Source: Dictyostelium discoideum
Taxonomy: Eukaryota
Assembly (NCBI GenBank): GCA_000004695.1
Contig: CM000152.2
Coordinates: forward strand, 6,112,001-6,176,000
Length of the DNA stretch: 64,000 nt
Direction of reading: 5' to 3'
Positions 1 through 11,829 of the stretch are shown one piece after another; the stretch's first letter is position 1, and each line of letters opens with the position of its first letter. The translations under genes and the position numbers were made by a program. A model generated the notes under the pieces. The model worked only from the letters and a program-made list of their open reading frames with translations. It was not told the DNA's origin and ran no database searches.

Positions 1-668
1 GTAATTCAATTCAAAGTTTAGAACAATTATATAATCAATTCAAACCAAATATTAAATTAATAATTTGGGGTGTATTCTTTGATAATGATAAAACCAATAC
101 TAGACCATCACCAACAACAACAAGCAGTACCAAAGAATCTGAAAAAGAAATATCTCATGAACCCTTAGCATATACAATTTGTTTTTTATTAAATGATGGT
201 ACAATTGATATTAATGATCAATTTGAAATTAATATAAATAGTGGTACTGACAATAATAATGATAATAATAATAAAAAGAATGGTTTAGATGATGAATTCG
301 AATATATTCAAGCAACAGTATCAAATAAAAAATCATCATTACAATTGAAATCAAACTCGACAAATCAAAAAACGACTATAAATAATTATATATCAAAAAA
401 GTATTTCATTACAATTTGTGATAATATGGGTGGCAAAATTGAAGAGAAATTAAATTTCATGAAAAATATCATTCAAGATGAATCAATAGTTAAAGTTGTT
501 TACTTTTGCCAAGAATCAATTAAACCATTCATTAAATATTATGATTGGATTAATTTAAGGAATTGTTGGGATCCAATGATTGGTGCTTGGTTATTAGAAA
601 GTGACCTTTTATCAACTAAAAAAGTTTCAATTGAATCACTTGCTCATTTTTTAAAATTAAAATCATTA

Positions 669-737
<69 letters not shown>

Positions 738-2510
738 CAAAATAATAATAATTTAATATTTACAGAAAAAGAATTAAATTATATATTAAAAAGAGAATCA
801 TTATTATATGATAAAGATAAAGATACATCATCAAATTATAATAACTATCTTTATGATCATTGGTTAGTATTAAAAGTTTATAATGTAATCTCAATTAGTT
901 TATTCGAATTTGATTTAAATTTCTCATTTTCAAATGAAATGAGATTAATACCGATTCTATCAAAGATGGAATTAGAAGGTATTTGTTGTAATATTGGTAA
1001 ACTGGATCATTATTTAAAAAGAATTTCAGAGTTTACTAAAGAATTAAAAGAAAGTGTAAATAAAGACGATGGCGATGATGATGACGATAATAATTTTAAA
1101 AGATTTGAAGAATTTAAATTAGGATCATTTAAAGAAGTTAGTGGATGGTTAAATCAACATGGTGTAGATATAAAGAGTACAAGTAAAGAAACATTGATTC
1201 AACAAAAAAGATTGAATATAAATAATCAAAAAGTTGTAACATTTATTGATAGAGTATTATTCTATAGAAGATTATCAGCTTTAAAAGGTCACTATATTGA
1301 ACCATACTTGTTAAAGTATACAAATACTACTACTACTACTAAAACTCGTAGTAATACTAATTCAACATTTCAAATCTCTTGTCAATGGAATCAAACTGGT
1401 ACTGCTACTGGTCGTTTATCATCCTCTGAACCAAATCTTCAAACTATTCCAAGAACGTCAACATCATTAATAAATCCAACTACAGCAACAACTACTACTA
1501 CTACTACTTCTACAAATAATGATTTAAATGATTTAGATGATTTAGATGATTTAGATTATAATGGTAATGATGGTGGTTCATTAGATCCTGATTTTATTCA
1601 AGCATTACAAGATGATGATGATAATAATAATATTAATAATAATAATAATAATGATGATGATGATAATATTATAAATATTAGAAATTCATTTATTTCAAGA
1701 GAAGGATTTAGTTTAGTAGTATTAGATTATAATCAAGTTGAATTAAGAATTATTGCACATTTTTCAAGAGATAAACATTTAATTGAATATTTTGAAAGTG
1801 GTAGTGATGTTATTAATATGATGGCAGTTAGATTATCGGATAGAGATGATCTCGATGTAAACAATGTTGATAAAGAAACTCGTGATAGAGTTAAACGTAT
1901 AGTTTATGGTATACTCTATGGTATTCAAGCATTTTCTTTGGGTAAATTATTAAATATACCAATTTATAAGGCATCTGATCATATAAAGAATTTCTATTTC
2001 AAATTTGATGGTGTTTCAAATTTCATACAGATTACAAAATCAAATGCAGAAAAATCTCATGTCGTTCCTACACTTGGTAAAAGAATTAGAAAATTAGATA
2101 GTAAATTTAAAACTAAAGCTGTAAATTCAATAATTCAAGGTAGTTCTGCCGATATCATTAAATTAGCAATGATAACAATAATGAATGAATTATTTTTACC
2201 ATTATTAAATTTAAATTCAAATAATAATAATAAAATACCTCGATTTTTATTACAAGTTCATGATGAATTAGTATTTGAAGTACCAGATGAATATTTAGGT
2301 GATAATTCAATTAGAATGGATCTTTTAATTAAATACCAAATGGAAAATGTTTCAAATTATTTTAATATGTGTGTACCTTTATCAACATCTTTATCCATTG
2401 GCAAAAAGTATGGTTCATTATCAAAAGTAGTCTCTGAAAAAAATCAAGTCGATTTAAAAGAAAATATGGACAACTTTAAACAATTTTTATTTAATTATAA
2501 AAATAAATAA
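1..2510 (+). CDS. Family A DNA polymerase (Pol theta / Pol nu-like) C-terminal polymerase domain; 5'-partial, frame continues from window start
   Basis: Open frame from nt 3 to the TAA at 2508-2510. Pol I-family motif A 'LDYNQVELRIIAHFS', motif B 'RVKRIVYGILYGIQAFSLGK' and motif C 'QVHDELVFEV' are present, plus a 'RLSSSEPNLQTIPR' O-helix-like segment. The window begins with gtaatt, so the start may lie in or after an intron. Confidence 0.75.
661..735 (+). repeat. (AAT)n trinucleotide repeat inside the polymerase CDS, encoding poly-Asn
   Basis: About 25 perfect aat units that translate as N25. Confidence 0.9.
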
Positions 2511-2578
2511 ATTATAAAATAAAATAAAGATTATTAATTTATTTTAATAGTCTATATTTTTATTATTAATAATAATAT

Positions 2579-2620
<42 letters not shown>

Positions 2621-3265
2621 CGTTGGGATTTTAAACTCCTAACTTTGGGCATTCCTAGAAAAAGTTTTTCACAGATTAAATTAATTTAATGTTAATTCCT
2701 ATTTTTTAAAAAAAACTAAACAAAAAAATAAAAAAAAAAAAAATAAAAAAAAAAAAACTAAAATCTGTGTATAATCTTTCAAGACAATATTATTAAAAAA
2801 AAAATAGGAATTAATTTTTCCTAAAAGGAGTTTATAGGAATTAAACAAAAACCTATTACATACTTTCAGTAAAATTTAAAATTATTTTATAAAAAAAAAA
2901 ATGTGGGGTTTTTTTTTTATTGTTTTAGATTTTATTTTTTAAATAATTTGTTTTTAGTGTGTCATTTGTTGTTAAAAAACTTAATCTTCTTATGGAATCT
3001 ACCATCTAAATACTCTTAAAGTTAAAATTTTTTATAATCTTAAAAAGAAAAGGTATGATAAATTTAAATTTTAATTTTTTCATGTTATAATATCTTTTTT
3101 TTTTTTTTAATTTTGGATTATTTAAGGATTATTTCTGTTTTATTTTAAAAAATATAAAAAAAAAAATAAAAAAATAATAATTATAATTTTATAGTTGATT
3201 ATATTTAGAAAAATATTTATATATATATAAATATATATAATAATTTTAAATTAAACTAATATAAA

Positions 3266-4405
3266 ATGAAAAAAAATTTAAATAATCTAACAAAAAAAAA
3301 ATTATTTCAATTAAATAATTATAATAATAATTCAAAGAAAATTGAATTTAATAATATAAATATTCAAGAATTTAATAATGGATGTAGAAAAATTATAATA
3401 AATAGAGATGAAAATTCAAATTCTATAAATTCAGAAATTTCAACAAATTTTTTATTAAATAAATTAAATGAATATAAAGAAGATAAAGAAAGTAAATTTA
3501 TAATTCTATGTGGTGATAATAATTTACCAAATTCAAATTCATTATTAAATCAAAATTCTAATAAACCAATTATATCATTTGTAAATGAAATTACTATGGG
3601 TTTAACTTTACATTGTAGTCATAGAATTGTTGGTGATAATGCAATTTGGTCAATTCCAAAAGTAAGCTATTATTATTATTATTATAATTTTAATATTTTA
3701 AAAATTAATTTTAAAATTTTACAAAAAAAAAAAAAAAAAAAAAAAAAAGACTAACGAATTATTTTTTTCAGATTTGGGAACAAGTCATTTCCTTTCAAGA
3801 CTCGGTTCAGTTGGATTATATTTAGGAATAGTTAGAAAAAATATTAGGACAACAGATTTAATTAAAACTAATATTGCAAATAATTATATCCCAAATGAAT
3901 TATTTGATAAAGCAATGTGTGAATTGTGTTTTAGTCCAATGAATAAATGATGATGAAATTGATTTTACAATAAAGAAGTATAAAAAAGAGTTAATTATTG
4001 ATAGAGAGTCGTCGCATTTGGTGAAATACAGGGATATAATCGATAGATGTTTTAATAGAAATTTTAAATCAGTTCAAGAGATCATTAATCATTTAAAGAA
4101 TGAAATACTTTTTGATGATATTCCACACGAAAAACAATGGGCCATAAATACATTGTCAATATTGGAAAACTCATGTCAATCTTCAGTTTCTGTTTCATTT
4201 GAAAATATTCAACGTTCATTATATTTAAATATAAATGAAATTTTTGAAAATGAAAATAGAATTATTTCGAAAACAATTGGAAAAAAATGACTTTCCTAAA
4301 TTGTTAACAATCCATAAATCTCAAAAACCAATTTTCTCTCCCTCTTCAATTAATGAAATAAGTCAAACTATAAAGTTTCCTTTTTTTTTTTTTGTATTTC
4401 TTTAA
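3266..4405 (+). pseudogene. 3-hydroxyisobutyryl-CoA hydrolase (HIBCH, crotonase-fold)-like gene, degenerate with probable frameshifts
   Basis: Exon 1 is 3266-3661 (donor aaa|gtaagc). Exon 2 starts at 3750 after the AG at 3748-3749. It encodes 'TNELFFSDLGTSHFLSRLGSVGLYLGIVRKNIRTTDL', which matches the HIBCH segment '[36 protein letters not shown]'. Homology then continues in frame +1 from ~3946 ('DDEIDFTIKKYKKE...SFENIQRSLYLNINEIFENENRI') and in frame +2 from ~4250 ('NDFPKLLTIHKSQKPIFSP' ~ 'DFHEGVRAVLIDKDQSPKW'). No intron can join these segments. The Gly-rich oxyanion loop (GGG->LTL) and the catalytic Glu of 'MPE' (->IPK) are lost. Confidence 0.5.
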
Positions 4406-4712
4406 AAGATAAAAAAAAAAAAAAAAAAAATAAATAATCAATAATTCCAGGTTTTTTTTTTTTATTTATTTTATATTTAATATTTCCAAAAATAGAAAAA
4501 TAGAAAAAATAAAAAATAATTTTATGGAAATAAAACAATTCTCAAATTTTTATTATTATTATTTTATTATTAATATTTGTACACAATATTGGAAATGATT
4601 AACTTTGAAATTTATTTTCAGGCAACTGATAAAATTTTTAAAAGAAAAAATCAATTGTTCAATGAAAATCAAAAAAAACAAAAAAAAAAAATAAAAATAA
4701 AAATAATAAATA

Positions 4713-4755
<43 letters not shown>

Positions 4756-5074
4756 GTTTAAAAAGATATTAGAAAAAGACATGCAAATAATAAATAAATT
4801 TTTTTTTTTAAAACAAAAAAAAAAAAAAAAAAAAAAAAAAAACATTTTTGTGTCATATGATCAAAATTCCTTAATATTGAAAAAAAAAACACTTTTTGTT
4901 AGATCTTTTGGCGATCGTTAATTTTTTTTAAATTCTATTTTTTTATTTTTTTTTTAACTCATCGATTGAGCCACCGTGATTACTTTGAGATATTTTTTAA
5001 TTTCACACAAAGTTTTGTTTTTTTTTTTATTTTTTATTTTTTATTTTTCATTTTTTATTATGGTTATTAATTTT

Positions 5075-5109
<35 letters not shown>

Positions 5110-5502
5110 TATTTTTTTATTGTACCCACACCATTCTATAATATATTATATATTTATTTTTAAAATTTTTCATTTTCTTGAAAAATAAAATTAAAAAAAA
5201 AAATAAAAATAATTTTTAAAAAAAAAAAAATACAGCTATAATATTTTTATAATCACTAATATATTTATAAATAGCATCTTGATCAATTTTTTTTAAATAA
5301 AATAAAAAAAATATTTTCACCTTATGTATGTGTTCTAAAAATAACTAAAAAAAAAAATAAAATAAAATAAAAAAAAATAATAGTAGAAAAAATGGTTTTT
5401 ATTTTTTTTTTTTATTTTATTTTTTTTTTTTTTTATTTATTTTTTTTTTTTTCGCACCCGAATTATTTTAAACGTTTAAAAATTTTTTTTTTATTTTATT
5501 TG

Positions 5503-5542
<40 letters not shown>

Positions 5543-5974
5543 AATTTTTAAACGTGTAATAATAAAAAAAGATTTTTCTTTTTTCTCAATAAATTAAATA
5601 ACATAAACCAATAATTTTCATATCACAAAAGGTAGTAATAATAATAATAAAAAAAAAATATACAACAAAAAATATCAAAATTATATTATTAGTAATATTA
5701 CTGTCAATAGCAATAATAATAATAATAACAACAATAGTTGTAAGAGTAATAATAAAAATAATTATAATTATAATAATGATAATAATGATAATAACAATAG
5801 CAGCACAGCAACAGCAAAGAAAAATAACAAAGAGAATTTAAATCCTCCTAACATATATCATCATCTTTATCGACTAAGGTGGGAGGGGGATTAATTTTTA
5901 ATCAAATAAATAAATCTCTACAATCCATACCCCAACCATCATAATCATAATAAAATACTCACAAAATTATTCAC

Positions 5975-6068
5975 ACACACACACACACAGCAGTAACAAA
6001 CTAACATACATACACTCACACACACAACACTCCCACACACAACACTCCCACACATTAACACACACACA
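5975..6068. repeat. CA/ACAC-rich simple repeat
   Basis: Imperfect 'cacacacacacag...cacacacaacactcccacacac' run in the promoter region upstream of the GbpD-like gene. Confidence 0.8.
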
Positions 6069-6340
6069 AAATTTAAAATATTTTTTTTTATTTTTTTCTA
6101 TTTTTTATTTTTTTTTTTTAAAAATAAAAAAAAAAAAAAAAAAAAAAAACCATAACAATATATTAACACAAAATAAAAAAAAAAAAAAAAAAAATATACA
6201 TATAATATATATAACATATAATAGAATAAAATATTTTAGAAACTATAAACTTTAATTTAACCAATCAAAACCAAAAAGGTTTACAACAATAGCAATAGCG
6301 CTAAAAAACCAAATAGTTTTATAATCAATCAATTATCAAA

Positions 6341-6485
6341 ATGACAGATTACCCATTCTATAAACCAGATGATGAAACCAATATAATATATAATATAAAT
6401 ATAAATAAAAAAGAAGGATTTAGTGCGATTAAATCTTGTTCATTAGCAAAATTAATAGAGAAATTAACATCAACAAAACAACTTC
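6341..6485 (+). CDS. gbpD: GbpD-like RasGEF, exon 1 (start codon; RasGEF N-terminal/REM domain begins)
   Basis: ATG at 6341. The exon encodes 'MTDYPFYKPDDETNIIYNINI...AKLIEKLTSTKQL'. Donor gtatgt at 6486, phase 1. Confidence 0.6.
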
Positions 6486-6595
6486 GTATGTTTCTTTAAA
6501 AAACAAAAAAAAAAAAAAAAAAAAAAAAATAGATGTATGACTAATTAATTATTTTTTATATATATACATTGGTTTTTTTTTTTAAATTATTTTAG

Positions 6596-6755
6596 ACACA
6601 TATTTTTCATCAGCTTTTTTTTTAACATATAGAGATTTTACAACCCCACTAGAGATTATTAATCTTTTAATTAGTAGATATACAGGACCACCACCTGATT
6701 CAAGTAAAGATTCTTTAAGATTATTTGAAATTGAAGTTGATATTGTTCAAGCAAA
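6596..6755 (+). CDS. gbpD: GbpD-like RasGEF, exon 2 (REM domain)
   Basis: Acceptor ttttag at 6591-6595. Encodes 'HTYFSSAFFLTYRDFTTPLEIINLLISRYTGPP', a RasGEF-N signature. Donor gtaagt at 6756, phase 2. Confidence 0.6.
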
Positions 6756-6858
6756 GTAAGTTTTTTTTTTTTTTTTTTTTATTATTAATTATTTTTAAAA
6801 ACCAATTTTAATAATATTTTTTTTTTATTTTTTTTTTATTTTTTTTTTTTAAAAATAG

Positions 6859-7105
6859 TGTTTTAAGTATATTTAGGACACTTATTGGAACATTAATACA
6901 AGTAGATTTCGATACACCAAAATTATCAAGTTCAATTATAGAATTTTTCAATTCGTTACCAGAAAGTGTAAAAAATGAACTCTTTTTAGAATTTTTTAAA
7001 GCAAAGAAAATGGCAAGACCACCCGGATCAATTCCCAAACCTGTAAATAGTAATATAATATCATCAGCCGCTTCAACAATGCGTTTTTCATATTCTGTTA
7101 GTCCA
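6859..7105 (+). CDS. gbpD: GbpD-like RasGEF, exon 3
   Basis: Acceptor aaatag at 6853-6858. Encodes 'NVLSIFRTLIGTLIQVDFDTPKL...'. Two in-phase donors are possible, gttagt at 7097 or gtttgt at 7106. The 7106 donor gives a 1312-aa total, the length I recall (unverified) for GbpD. Confidence 0.5.
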
Positions 7106-7185
7106 GTTTGTATCCCAATATTAATAATTTATTTAAATTTTTTTATTTATTATTAATTTTTTTTTTTTTTTTAATACAATCACAG

Positions 7186-8007
7186 AAAACACAATCACCA
7201 AATTCTACAAATAATGTTTTATCAGGCTTATTATCAAATAATGGTAGTAATACAATGAATGGTATAAATGGTACAAGTAATAATAATGTAAATAGTAATA
7301 ATAACAATAATAATGGAACAACAAATATTAGTTCACCAAATTTTGATCCAAGTAGATCATCGATGAAAATGGGTAAAGGTATAATGAAATTACTTCAATC
7401 TAATATAGCTAATTTTAATAATCAACAAAATGGAGGAGGAGGTGGTGGTAGTAATAATGGTACATCACCACAAAGTTCACCATCATCAACACTTTCAAGC
7501 ACAAACTCATTATTCAATCAACAACCATCATTATCAATGTTAAATGATGATGGTTCTGTACAAAACAACAATAACAACAATAACAACAACAACAACAACA
7601 ACAATGTAAATGAAATTTCAACAATAAATGTACAATTACCACCATCAACTCCACCAATTAATGGTATACCAGGTGAGAAAACTGCATTCTTACCAGAGGC
7701 AATCGCCAAAGAATTGACCATTATGGAATGGGAATTAATCACAGCTTTAAGTGTTAGTGATATTACCAGTAAAGAATGGAATAAATCTGTAAATATTCAA
7801 AATTTAACAACTTGGTTCAATAGAATTAGTTCATGGGTTTCAACTAAGATCATATCAAAAGAAACACCAGAAGAAAGAGCAATCATTATTGAAGCTTTTA
7901 TTAATATAGCAAACTTTGCAAAAGAATTAAAAAATTATAATTGTGTTATGGAAATCTTAGGTAGTTTACATGGTTCTTCAATAAGTAGATTAAAATCAAG
8001 TTGGGCT
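7186..8007 (+). CDS. gbpD: GbpD-like RasGEF, exon 4 (linker and first half of the CDC25-homology GEF domain)
   Basis: Acceptor cacag at 7181-7185. Encodes 'EKTAFLPEAIAKELTIMEWELITALSV...NYNCVMEILGSLHGSSISRLKSSWA'. Donor gtatgt at 8008, phase 0. Confidence 0.65.
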
Positions 8008-8074
8008 GTATGTATATAATAGTCTTTTAAAATATATATATATATTTATTAAAATTAATAAAAAATAGTCTTTT

Positions 8075-8109
<35 letters not shown>

Positions 8110-8159
8110 TAAAATTAATTATTAATTTTTATTTTTATTTTTCAAATAATTATTTATAG

Positions 8160-10289
8160 TTATTATCACAAAAAACAAATGACATGTTTCAAATTTTAAA
8201 TAATTTAATGACAACAGATGGTAATTTTAAAAATTATCGTAAAATTTTAACAACAGTATTACCAAATGAACCATGTATACCCTATTTGGGTTTATTTTTA
8301 ACAGATTATACTTATTTGGATGAATCGAATCCATCATTATCAACCGATAGTAATTTGATAAATATTGATAGAATTTTTTTGATTAGTACTCGTGTTCAAG
8401 AGTTTTTTCAATTGTTTACAAATTGTAACTATACATTCATTTCAAATATGTCTGTACGTGATGCGATTTTAGGTGAAAAGGTTTGGGATGAAAATGAAAT
8501 TTTTAGACTTTCAAAGATTAGAGAAGAGACATCATCATTACAATCATTAAAAGAATCAAATGGTATAGGTAATAGTAATAGTACAAGTGGAGGTAGTAGT
8601 AGTAGTTTAGTCAATAAAGATGGTAGTGGTGGTGGTGGTGGTAGTGGCGGTGGTGGTAGTGTTAATAGTAAAGGTGATGGTAAAGGTGATGGTAAAGATA
8701 ATCGAGATGGTAGAGGTGATGGTAATAGTAATTGTGGTAATGGTAGTGGTATTAGTAGCAAAGATAAAGATTTACTATTATCATCATCATCATCAGCAGC
8801 ATCACATACAGTTAGAAGAAAGAATTTTGTAACCAAATATCGTATGTCATTCACTGGTAACGATCCATTACCATCGGTTTCATCGACATTGTCCGAAAGA
8901 GAATGGAAGATCTTAACAACAAATTCTAAAACCATCATTTATCCAAGAGGTAAAACTGTATTAAGTGTGGGTGAAACCAATACCAATATTTATCGTGTAA
9001 TCTCTGGTAGAGTAAAAGTTGAAACTTTGAAATCATTCAATTCATCCGATGCTGATTTAGGTGCAGGTGGTGGTGGAGGTGGCGATAATCGTGGCGAAGA
9101 TAATAGTTTGATGGCAATTAAAGCAAGGAATCGTCTATCATTGAATTTACCTGCTCAGGATGATGGTTACTATGTTGAAGAGGGTGAAATATTTGGTCAA
9201 GAATCATTCCTCTACACTGATAGACCTATGCTTTCAAATATTATTGTCGATAGTGGAGAATGTGAATTAATGGAGATTGAAAAATCATTTGTATTACAAT
9301 TATTTGCAAGTGAACACCAACTATCTGCAACTTTTTATAAATTTATTGGTGTAATTCAAGCTCAACTATTAAAATCAATTTATATCAATTTTACAAGTAA
9401 TTATGGTAACGGTGGTAGTGGTGGTAGTGGTAGCAATGGCAATGGTGGTGGTAGTAGCAATGGTGCGGGTGGTGGTGGTTTAAGTAGTAGTGTTAGTATT
9501 GGTAATTTAAATTCACCAAATATCAATAGAATCGATTTTAAAAGAAGATCAACAATCTTTGAAACACCATCATCATTGGATATATTACGTGATGGTAATG
9601 ATTCATCTTTTAGAACTAAATTTGGGTTATCACAAGATGAAGTTATCATTAAACGTTATCAATGTAAACATAATAATATGAATGGTACATTATATATCAC
9701 AAAACATAATCTATGTTTTGAGGGTAAATTCCTTGGTATAAATAAAAATAAAACCATACCATTCGATCGAACCGATAAAATCTTAACAGTTGATAAAAAT
9801 ATTATGACTGTCACTACAAAAGAAAAAGTAAAGAAATTCACTTTTAAATCACATGATGATCTAAATGAAGGTTATGGTATTTCAGTTCAAATTTGGGCAA
9901 ATCATTTAAATATTAATGTTAAACAACAATTACAATTACAACAACAACAATTACAACAACAACAACAACAACCATCCCAACAACCATCTCAACAACAATC
10001 TCAATCATCACAATTACAACAATCAGTTAGTGCATCATCAACAACACCACCTGTACCAAATTCACCAAAAGTTGGACGTGGTGAATCATTTAGTAATATT
10101 AAAGATTTACCATCAAAAGATGAATGGAATCAAATTCTTAAAGGTACAAAACCATTAACCTTTAAAAAAGGTGAAATTTTAATTTGTGAAGGTGTTGAAT
10201 ATCAAAAAATGTTTCAAATTGTCAAAGGTGAATGTTCAGTTGTTAAAAGTTTATTACCAACTCCATTGGATCAAAATATTTTTAATAAT

Positions 10290-10351
<62 letters not shown>

Positions 10352-10724
10352 TAATAATAATAATAATAATAATGGAAATAATAATAATAGTATATTTAAA
10401 AATAATTCATCAATTAGTAATACAAATAGTAATACATCGATTGATGGTGGAGTTGGTGGTGGTTTATCACCACAAACATTAGTTGATCCAAAAAATTCTG
10501 TTATTGTTTCAAAATTAACTCATGGAAGTATTTTTGGTGAAATGTCTTTCTTATTACCAGGTGGTAGCGCAACATCTTTGGTTGTCTCAAGTGATGAAGT
10601 CGAAGTATATATTATCGAAAGTTATTTCCTTCATATTCTATTAAAATCAAAACCTTATTTAGCAAGTAAATTTTATAAATATTTAGCCTGTGTACTTGAA
10701 ACACGTGTCCGTAATTTAACTTAA
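8160..10724 (+). CDS. gbpD: GbpD-like RasGEF, exon 5 (rest of CDC25 domain, cNMP-binding domain A, GRAM domain, cNMP-binding domain B; stop)
   Basis: Acceptor tttatag at 8153-8159. Encodes 'NYRKILTTVLPNEPCIPYLGLFLTDYTYLDE' (CDC25). cNB-A contains 'EIFGQESFL'. The GRAM domain contains 'KRYQCKHNNMNGTLYITKHNLCFEGK'. cNB-B contains 'FGEMSFLLPGG'. TAA at 10722. The REM-CDC25-cNB-GRAM-cNB order matches D. discoideum GbpD. Confidence 0.7.
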
Positions 10725-11376: not shown

Positions 11377-11829
11377 ATGTTTGATTTTATTCCAGAAGAA
11401 GCAGTTTGGGCAATTTTAATTATTGTTATAATTTATCTTTTAAAAGTTATATTATCACCAGCAAAAGATTATGTTCCAACTAAAGTTGTACAAAAACCAG
11501 TTTACGAAAAAAGAGATTATTCATTAGAGGAAATTAAAGATTTTAAAGGAATTGATGAAACAAAACCAATTTTCATCGCAATTAAAGGTAAAATTTATGA
11601 TGTAACTGCAAAGAAATCAACTTATGGTCCAGGTGGCTCATATCATTTATTTGCAGGAAATGATGCTACAGTCTGTTTGGCCAAAAGTTCATTCGAAGAA
11701 TCTGACATTAATCAACCATGGACAAATCAATCATTAGATGATTTAACTGCAGATCAAAAAGATTCACTTAAAAATTGGATTGATTTCTTTAGTGAAAGAT
11801 ATACTTTAGTTGGAAATGTTAAAGAATAA
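11377..11829 (+). CDS. Membrane-associated progesterone receptor component / cytochrome b5-like heme-steroid binding protein (MAPR/PGRMC family), single exon
   Basis: N-terminal TM helix, then 'YSLEEIKDFKGIDETKPIFIAIKGKIYDVTAKKSTYGPGGSYHLFAGNDATVCLAK', which matches the MAPR cyt-b5 domain consensus. Confidence 0.7.
   Translation: MFDFIPEEAVWAILIIVIIYLLKVILSPAKDYVPTKVVQKPVYEKRDYSLEEIKDFKGIDETKPIFIAIKGKIYDVTAKKSTYGPGGSYHLFAGNDATVCLAKSSFEESDINQPWTNQSLDDLTADQKDSLKNWIDFFSERYTLVGNVKE

Follow-up and report, generated by a model that had tools for sequence, protein, structure and literature searches.

A probable non-catalytic paralogue of HIBCH, recently shortened at its C-terminus, at the locus DDB_G0282681 of Dictyostelium discoideum

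The gene DDB_G0282681 of Dictyostelium discoideum AX4 occupies positions 3266-4405 of a 64,000-nucleotide stretch of the reference genome (contig CM000152.2, positions 6,112,001 to 6,176,000; hereafter the window, to which all coordinates refer, the features of the gene lying on the + strand), and encodes a relative of 3-hydroxyisobutyryl-coenzyme A (CoA) hydrolase, HIBCH. Comparison with its orthologues and paralogues makes it probable that this gene is a dead-enzyme paralogue that has been maintained by selection, that it was truncated at its C-terminus recently in the lineage of strain NC4, and that no recoding is involved in its expression. The finding is real but ordinary: an annotated gene, a dead-enzyme paralogue and a reference model that is probably off at one base.

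Membership of the locus in the HIBCH family is evident from several searches. Between the ATG at 3266 and the stop codon at 4403-4405 lies a coding region whose repaired translation matches the Pfam family ECH_2 (PF16113) with E=1.6e-43 and 149.9 bits, above the gathering threshold of 27.2 bits, over profile positions 85-329 of 335. Taken singly, three of the four frame segments match this profile, and do so collinearly (positions 85-123, 129-183, and 193-296), and the 56-residue tail segment on its own gave no ECH_2 match in the Pfam profile search. The best matches in the PDB, in sequence as well as in fold, are human HIBCH (3BPT; phmmer 4.1e-13) and the mitoribosomal HIBCH-like mS47 chains. 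In protein searches, the locus corresponds to the AX4 protein P0004 (XP_640198.1, UniRef Q54S41), annotated as a "hypothetical protein" of 198 amino acids, whose sequence is that of exon 1 plus exon 2 throughout (100% identity). A sequence-only reading of the window had proposed a collinear HIBCH homology spread over several frames with two frame changes; the homology stands, but the count does not, as translation in three frames gives four collinear coding pieces and hence three frame changes.

The window was aligned with three diverged members of the D. discoideum complex (L001, L002, and L003) and with a near-identical second assembly (L005). The latter was reached through the 90% cluster of P0004, whose second member, P0011 (ACTFIT_012012, 311 amino acids), lies on a 6.43-Mb chromosome of assembly GCA_054883475.1. 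Over window positions 1-10321, this assembly differs from the AX4 reference by five mismatches and homopolymer-length gaps (99.56% identity). Assemblies based on Nanopore and Illumina data have been published for AX2-214, CR116C, OT3A, M4B, S6B, and other strains (Holland et al., PNAS 2025; PMC12745789). AX2-214 is a laboratory strain, CR116C and OT3A are wild D. discoideum, and M4B and S6B are possible cryptic species; the wild isolates are genetically diverged from AX4, whereas AX2 and AX4 are 99.5% identical at the tgrBC locus (PMC12745789). From its near-identity to the window, the second assembly (locus tag ACTFIT) would be that of AX2-214, and the tags ACTFIW, ACTFIY, ACTFIZ, and ACTFIR presumably designate OT3A, M4B, S6B, and CR116C, respectively.

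In human HIBCH, the key residues are Glu120, Gly146, Glu169, and Asp177 (PMC7982470). Their equivalents were mapped through alignments to 3BPT and through a protein alignment of the family. A deletion of about 27 residues has left the scar CGDNNLPNSNSLLNQNSNKP (3509-3568) in place of SFxSGGDxKE...(E)Y..D.LIH..KP, and the segment thus removed held the helix with the Glu120 equivalent and the first CoA/oxyanion (SGGD) loop. The oxyanion-hole loop (3596-3613) reads MGLTLH, which aligns as MG----LTLH, with a gap of four residues relative to both 3BPT and 6YW5; the underlying 12-nt (four-codon) deletion has taken away the Gly146 equivalent, whereas the loop is MGGGVGLS in intact paralogues and MGCGIGLS in the putative S6B copy. 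At the position of the catalytic Glu169, the last codon of exon 1 (3659-3661) is AAA for Lys, within SIPK (3650-3661) versus AMPE, and the same Lys is found in AX4, in the second D. discoideum assembly, and in the three diverged relatives. The equivalent of Asp177 (FSDLG versus FPDVG) is the only one of the four key residues that is retained. Two further elements are missing, namely the QGV(x) segment and the C-terminal tail FIDSFFLPL...EKKE.

The loss of the Glu120 segment and the Glu169-to-Lys substitution are found in all four discoideum-complex lineages, and the Gly146 loop is gone in three of them. Since the substitution and the large deletion are common to the four lineages, they must be older than their split. 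Judged from these residues, hydrolysis of acyl-CoA in the manner of HIBCH would not be expected of the product. The sequence-only reading had called the gene catalytically dead on the basis of SIPK and of a replacement of MGGGVG by MGLTLH. The first change is exactly as described and the loss of the Gly loop is real, but the latter is a four-codon deletion plus substitutions rather than a simple replacement, and the overall verdict was, if anything, understated.

The loss of catalysis has not been accompanied by neutral evolution. The codon frame of the orthologue was projected onto the DNA alignment, and the ratio of non-synonymous to synonymous substitution rates (dN/dS) was estimated by the Nei-Gojobori method (NG86), by likelihood, and by YN00. 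In the frame of the homology, NG86 gave a dN/dS of 0.28-0.49 in all six pairs (Fisher p 4.6e-07 to 5e-3), and in the two wrong frames of the same alignment, used as a control, values of 0.67-1.66, none of them significant. Methods that take the extreme codon bias into account, likelihood and YN00, gave 0.13-0.25 (maximum likelihood, 0.13-0.22). With the same script, the flanking genes gave 0.23-0.39 (polymerase-like gene) and 0.10-0.23 (RasGEF gene). Similarly, changes on the AX4/AX2 branch comprise nine synonymous and nine non-synonymous ones, where about 1:4.3 would be expected under neutrality. The putative OT3A and M4B copies are uninterrupted open reading frames (ORFs) of 343-346 codons, and all of their exon indels are multiples of three. 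As a side observation, the dS of the putative S6B copy relative to the other lineages (3266-4372) is 0.30-0.36 by NG86, which is 2-3 times the 0.10-0.17 of the flanking genes; a locally higher mutation rate, a relaxed selection on codon usage, or alignment noise are possible causes.

These values bear directly on the possibility that DDB_G0282681 is a plain unitary pseudogene in NC4-derived strains, in which both frame breaks are real in AX4, nothing useful is produced from the gene, and the low dN/dS reflects a selection that ended recently. The locus does have features that would fit this description: three of the four key residues are gone, about 27 residues of the core are deleted, two or three frame-disrupting indels fall within 430 bp, and dN is above that of the neighbouring genes. 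Moreover, the putative S6B copy (L003 6900-7110, corresponding approximately to window 4244-4310) has frame-breaking indels of its own in the C-terminal part (-29, +1, and -4), and no protein of this gene from the Logan assemblies was among the protein-search matches, whereas the cluster of the intact paralogue has two Logan members. However, the active site was lost before the four lineages split, and the dN/dS of 0.13-0.49, with its clean wrong-frame control, has to be set against that age, as do the branch counts and the intact ORFs described above; the second D. discoideum assembly also keeps 311 of about 346 codons open. A neutral pseudogene would show a dN/dS that does not differ from 1 and indels of any length, whereas here dN/dS is significantly low and the indels of the putative OT3A and M4B copies are all multiples of three; an independently confirmed frame lesion is found in the deletion at 4281-4287 described below, while the extra A at 3942 is present in AX4 only. 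We therefore regard a plain pseudogene as unlikely, although it is the most serious competitor of a selectively maintained paralogue. The suggestion of the sequence-only reading that the gene is a pseudogene copy of a genuine HIBCH gene is thus right in part: an intact gene does exist as its paralogue, and parts are being lost, but it has not evolved neutrally.

As this is a eukaryotic gene, introns have to be considered before any frame change is attributed to a lesion; the window has a G+C content of about 17-25%, poly-Asn proteins, and short AT-rich introns. Exon 1 (3266-3661) is an ORF of 132 codons from the ATG at 3266 (MKKNL...WSIPK), and its translation matches residues 1-132 of P0004 with 100% identity. 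It is followed by an 88-nt phase-0 intron (3662-3749, GTAAGC...A(26)G), which is used by the AX4 model and which by itself shifts the frame by +1. Exon structures were rebuilt exactly from the proteins for six orthologue and paralogue gene models, and all six have a single intron in the same place and phase, which follows the catalytic-Glu codon immediately. The junctions of the rebuilt models read ATGCCTGAA/GTAAGT ... AAAAAG/AATAAA (the slash marking the splice site), with an A-rich tract before the acceptor, and exon 1 ends in ATGCCTGAA/GT in intact paralogues versus ATTCCAAAA/GT in DDB_G0282681. The earlier statement that no intron was possible therefore applies to the two jump sites but not to the gene, whose conserved intron had escaped notice. 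Hidden introns at the jump sites themselves were considered and rejected, since neither site interrupts the colinear open frame of the orthologues.

Exon 2 as annotated in AX4 (3750-3950) ends at a premature TGA (3948-3950) and completes the 198-residue product; positions 3750-3947 translate as TNELFFSDLGTSHFLSRLG...CFSPMNK. Coding continues in the next frame (3943-4290, INDDEIDF...ISKTIGKK, ECH_2 positions 193-296) up to the TGA at 4288-4290, and in the second assembly this piece is contiguous with exon 2, which gives the 311-residue P0011. A remnant of the former C-terminus (4291-4372; 27 codons, DFPKLLTIHKSQKPIFSPSSINEISQTI, DFPKLL...NEISQTI) lies out of frame downstream of this stop, and the open frame after it continues to the TAA at 4403-4405. 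Exon 2 of AX4 starts with ACTAAC (3750-3755, Thr-Asn), where every other genome compared has AATAAA (Asn-Lys). This ACTAAC resembles a branch-point consensus, and TTTTTTTCAG begins 7 nt later (window 3750-3771); use of the AG at 3770/3771 as the acceptor would throw exon 2 out of frame. The T-rich CAG is nonetheless retained in all the genomes with AATAAA, namely the second D. discoideum assembly and the relatives.

The more distal of the two jumps is the one that shortens the protein. It had been placed at about 4250 by the sequence-only reading, but the stretch there (gaaaatgaaaatagaatt) differs from the orthologues only by an in-frame 6-bp indel. The actual lesion (4281-4290) is a run of seven A (A7, 4281-4287) left by a 2-bp deletion, where AX4 reads GGAAAAAAATGAC and the relative GGAATAAAAAATGAA (in a wider context, ATTGGAAAAAAATGAC versus ATTGGAATAAAAAATGAA); the deletion brings the new TGA at 4288-4290 into frame. 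A third lesion, absent from the earlier reading, affects the ancestral stop site (4370-4405), in which ACT ATA TAA has become ACT ATA AAG by a 2-bp TA deletion (around 4371-4373; window 4367-4375 is ACTATAAAG in AX4). With the ancestral stop lost, the ORF extends to 4405. Both D. discoideum assemblies carry the same A7 run and the same destroyed stop, and jump 2 is thus a real deletion in the NC4-derived lineage. Only one substitution is found in the 82-nt remnant past jump 2, so that, measured against the split from the nearest diverged relative (dS about 0.14), the truncation is recent.

The same site could be imagined to be a site of recoding, with a full-length protein restored either by a programmed +1 frameshift of the ribosome or by slippage of transcription on the A7 run. 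Indeed, A7 minus one A restores the ancestral frame (GGA AAA AAT GAC TTT ...), and the downstream remnant is still 93% identical to the tail of the orthologue P0001 (tblastn, 4283-4372). Nevertheless, the orthologues have a continuous ORF at both jump sites, with no shift to be conserved, and the second assembly reads through the first of them; the ancestral stop has been destroyed too, and a recent deletion would explain the conservation of the remnant. No known stimulatory element was identified, though none was specifically searched for. Recoding, which the sequence-only reading had itself ranked last, is thus hardly credible here.

Jump 1, which the sequence-only reading had located near 3946, is caused by one extra A (3942-3943, ATG-A-ATAAAT) that yields ATG AAT AAA TGA and that is a gap in the second assembly and in the three diverged relatives. 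The AX4 site reads CCAATG-A-ATAAATGATGAT versus CCAATG-[A/G]T[A/G]AAT in all other genomes aligned. Without this A, the ORF of the second assembly runs through jump 1 to KTIGKK and its stop. Among the genomes aligned, jump 1 thus occurs in the AX4 reference alone. In 10.3 kb, the non-homopolymer differences between the AX4 and second D. discoideum sequences are 2553 (T/G), 3751 (C/A), 3755 (C/A), and 3942 (A/gap), plus a small complex site at 4804-4819. At 2553, the ancestral base is that of AX4, whereas at 3751, 3755, and 3942 it is AX4 that stands apart, the second assembly having the state of all diverged relatives. These three positions lie within 200 bp, starting 2 nt past a 26-nt poly(A) run, with 3942 about 190 nt downstream.

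Three real mutations packed into 200 bp would be unexpected in strains that, like AX2 and AX4, both descend from NC4. The more economical explanation of jump 1 is therefore that the 2005 Sanger reference contains a local error, although the extra A may also be a real mutation private to that lineage; a literature search for reports of errors in the AX4 or AX2 references turned up none. Positions 3751, 3755, and 3942 are thus candidates for correction of the reference sequence. Apart from these sites, the two assemblies differ in homopolymer length at 2580, 3723, 4715, 5076, 5503, and 5649, where the longer run is always that of AX4, by 1-10 nt; this one-sidedness suggests that homopolymers were compressed in the Nanopore-based assembly, and not a biological difference.

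By extension, both frameshifts might be assembly or sequencing errors, the true protein being uninterrupted and about 340 amino acids long. The independent assembly of a sister laboratory strain lacks jump 1, which moreover lies close to the two other AX4-only differences beside the poly(A) run, and jump 2 sits in a homopolymer. This argument fails, however, at the second site: an assembly made from Nanopore and Illumina data (methods in PMC12745789) has exactly the jump 2 and the lost stop of the Sanger AX4 reference, and each of the two lesions removes 2 bp when compared with the orthologues, whereas a homopolymer miscount would be of 1 bp. Errors at both sites are accordingly very improbable. 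Of the proposal that the gene is a pseudo-enzyme with erroneous frameshifts, the dead active site and the purifying selection hold, and shift 1 may be an error of the AX4 sequence; shift 2, being present in both assemblies, does not fit.

The two database models, DDB_G0282681 of AX4 (198 amino acids) and ACTFIT_012012 of the putative AX2 (311 amino acids), share the locus, the start codon, and the intron; they differ in that the former stops at the frameshift of the extra A and the latter reads to the stop at the A7 run. The AX4 model probably misrepresents the gene, which is better described by the 311-residue model. From the names given in the databases, one would not learn of the dead active site or of the missing tail in either case.

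The gene can be followed back to an intact ancestor. In Dictyostelium dimigraforme, the positional orthologue is intact (SSGGDLKEL, MGSGVG, and SMPEN) and the gene order is the same (SPT16, large gene, ECH_2, RasGEF, cytochrome b5). Dictyostelium firmibasis has three tandem HIBCH-like copies at the locus, the third of which is the orthologue (74-81% identity) of the D. discoideum chromosome-1 paralogue Q55GN0 (XP_647154.1, 407 amino acids); a short relic of an ECH_2 C-terminus (L004 9414-9611; 37-49% identity, tblastn) lies between copies 2 and 3. In the syntenic region of Dictyostelium purpureum, no ECH_2 sequence was detectable. Q55GN0 belongs to the same family and has the single phase-0 intron after the catalytic-Glu codon, as shown directly in its D. 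firmibasis orthologue P0007, and its close homologue P0009 is 38-57% identical to the window (tblastn). In contrast to DDB_G0282681, it keeps SFCSGGDIKEF, VEY, MGGGVGLS, and AMPENRIGYFPDVG, and it matches human HIBCH at 4.4e-49.

The history that best accounts for these data would start with an HIBCH-like gene located between the family-A-polymerase-like and RasGEF genes in group-4 dictyostelids, of which DDB_G0282681 would be the positional descendant. Catalysis would have been lost in the ancestor of the discoideum complex, by deletion of the Glu120 segment and replacement of the catalytic Glu by Lys, and the Gly-rich oxyanion loop would have been deleted later, in the lineage leading to the putative M4B and OT3A and to NC4. 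The ORF would then have been kept under weak-to-moderate purifying selection as a non-catalytic protein, possibly with a pseudo-enzyme role. In the NC4 lineage (AX2 and AX4), the 2-bp deletion at 4281-4287 would have ended the protein at 311 residues, at the cost of a tail of about 35 residues with little structure, and a second 2-bp deletion would then have erased the old stop in what had become 3' untranslated sequence. The shift at 3942 would concern the AX4 reference only, as an error or an AX3/AX4 mutation, and ribosomal frameshifting would play no part. Presumably, the 311-residue product is still made and useful. Seen in this way, the locus is a small datable case, from an intact gene in D. 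dimigraforme through a dead but constrained one in the D. discoideum complex to two independent C-terminal truncations. It adds one more enzyme paralogue that has lost catalysis yet was kept for a time; it opens no long-standing question and provides no evidence of recoding. Its value is chiefly practical, and lies in the corrected anatomy of the gene and in the three candidate corrections of the reference.

In structure prediction, the tail that was lost appears poorly structured. The AlphaFold model of the intact orthologue P0001 (predicted local distance difference test, pLDDT, 66.5; predicted template modelling score, pTM, 0.60) keeps the HIBCH-type fold, with Foldseek E values of about 1e-9 to 1e-11 and template modelling (TM) scores of 0.50-0.61 to HIBCH and mS47 chains. 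Confidence is low at the deletion scars and over residues 308-329 and 336-346 (pLDDT below 50), and the latter two stretches are essentially the tail that jump 2 removes. With human HIBCH (3BPT), the locus shares collinear homology over the whole length, a matching predicted fold, the Asp177 equivalent, and the C-terminal helical domain; it differs by the deleted Glu120 helix, SGGD loop, and Gly146 loop, by the Lys at Glu169, and by the shortened C-terminal tail.

The mS47 chains (yeast 5MRC, Neurospora 6YW5, and plant 6XYW/9EVS) are top or near-top matches in both sequence and fold, and the mS47 proteins of Arabidopsis and Trypanosoma are HIBCH-like without a substrate-binding site (PMC7947838). 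However, the DDB_G0282681 copy is young, being found only in close relatives of D. discoideum, and is positionally derived from a tandem array; its resemblance to mS47, in sequence and predicted fold alone, is the generic similarity of the HIBCH fold expected of any HIBCH homologue. mS47 could thus serve as a precedent for a non-catalytic HIBCH paralogue in a structural role, not as a family to which the gene would belong. It is tentatively proposed that DDB_G0282681 is a young paralogue kept by purifying selection as a non-catalytic protein that has taken on a new role, which by this analogy could be structural or regulatory, and that its 311-residue product is still functional.

Several observations weigh against a selectively maintained paralogue. 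First, dN is 0.04-0.14, which is 2-4 times that of the flanking genes, so that the constraint must be weak and relaxed, though it is clearly present. Second, NC4 and the putative S6B were hit independently by frame-breaking indels in the C-terminal part. Third, no orthologue from ACTFIR (putative CR116C) or from Dictyostelium citrinum was among the protein-search matches, and exact-sequence look-ups of the 198-residue AX4 protein and of the ORFs 3266-3754, 3774-3950, and 4235-4405 returned no record. Weak constraint, recurrent breakage, and absent orthologues also fit a gene on its way to loss. In addition, the strain names of the locus tags were derived from near-identity and from the assembly statistics in PMC12745789, not from records, and the structure model is only moderately confident, as its mean pLDDT indicates.

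Proteins of the intact paralogue exist for both ACTFIR (P0013) and D. citrinum (P0008), and the gene may have been lost or may be unannotated in these two genomes. Searches for flanking-gene orthologues at the ACTFIR locus returned only a chromosome-2 paralogue and more distant species, and not close orthologues, an outcome probably due to low-complexity words that swamped the list of candidates; AX4's own proteins were likewise missing from the matches to the two flanking-gene queries. As for the putative S6B copy, its gene model ends early, at 316 amino acids; MGCGIGLS is kept and a further 4-codon deletion follows SMPK.

DDB_G0282681 lies on chromosome 3 of AX4. A literature search on this gene turned up no paper, and a tRNA scan of the window found none. 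A further copy or relic of the family within the window was considered and rejected, as tblastn with three family members matches only 3266-4372. On one side, the gene is flanked by the C-terminal part of a family-A DNA-polymerase-like gene (345-2510; PF00476), which is 59% identical to DDB_G0274421, and on the other by a gene with RasGEF, cNMP-binding, and GRAM domains (7108-10724); a cytochrome-b5-like ORF follows at 11377-11829.

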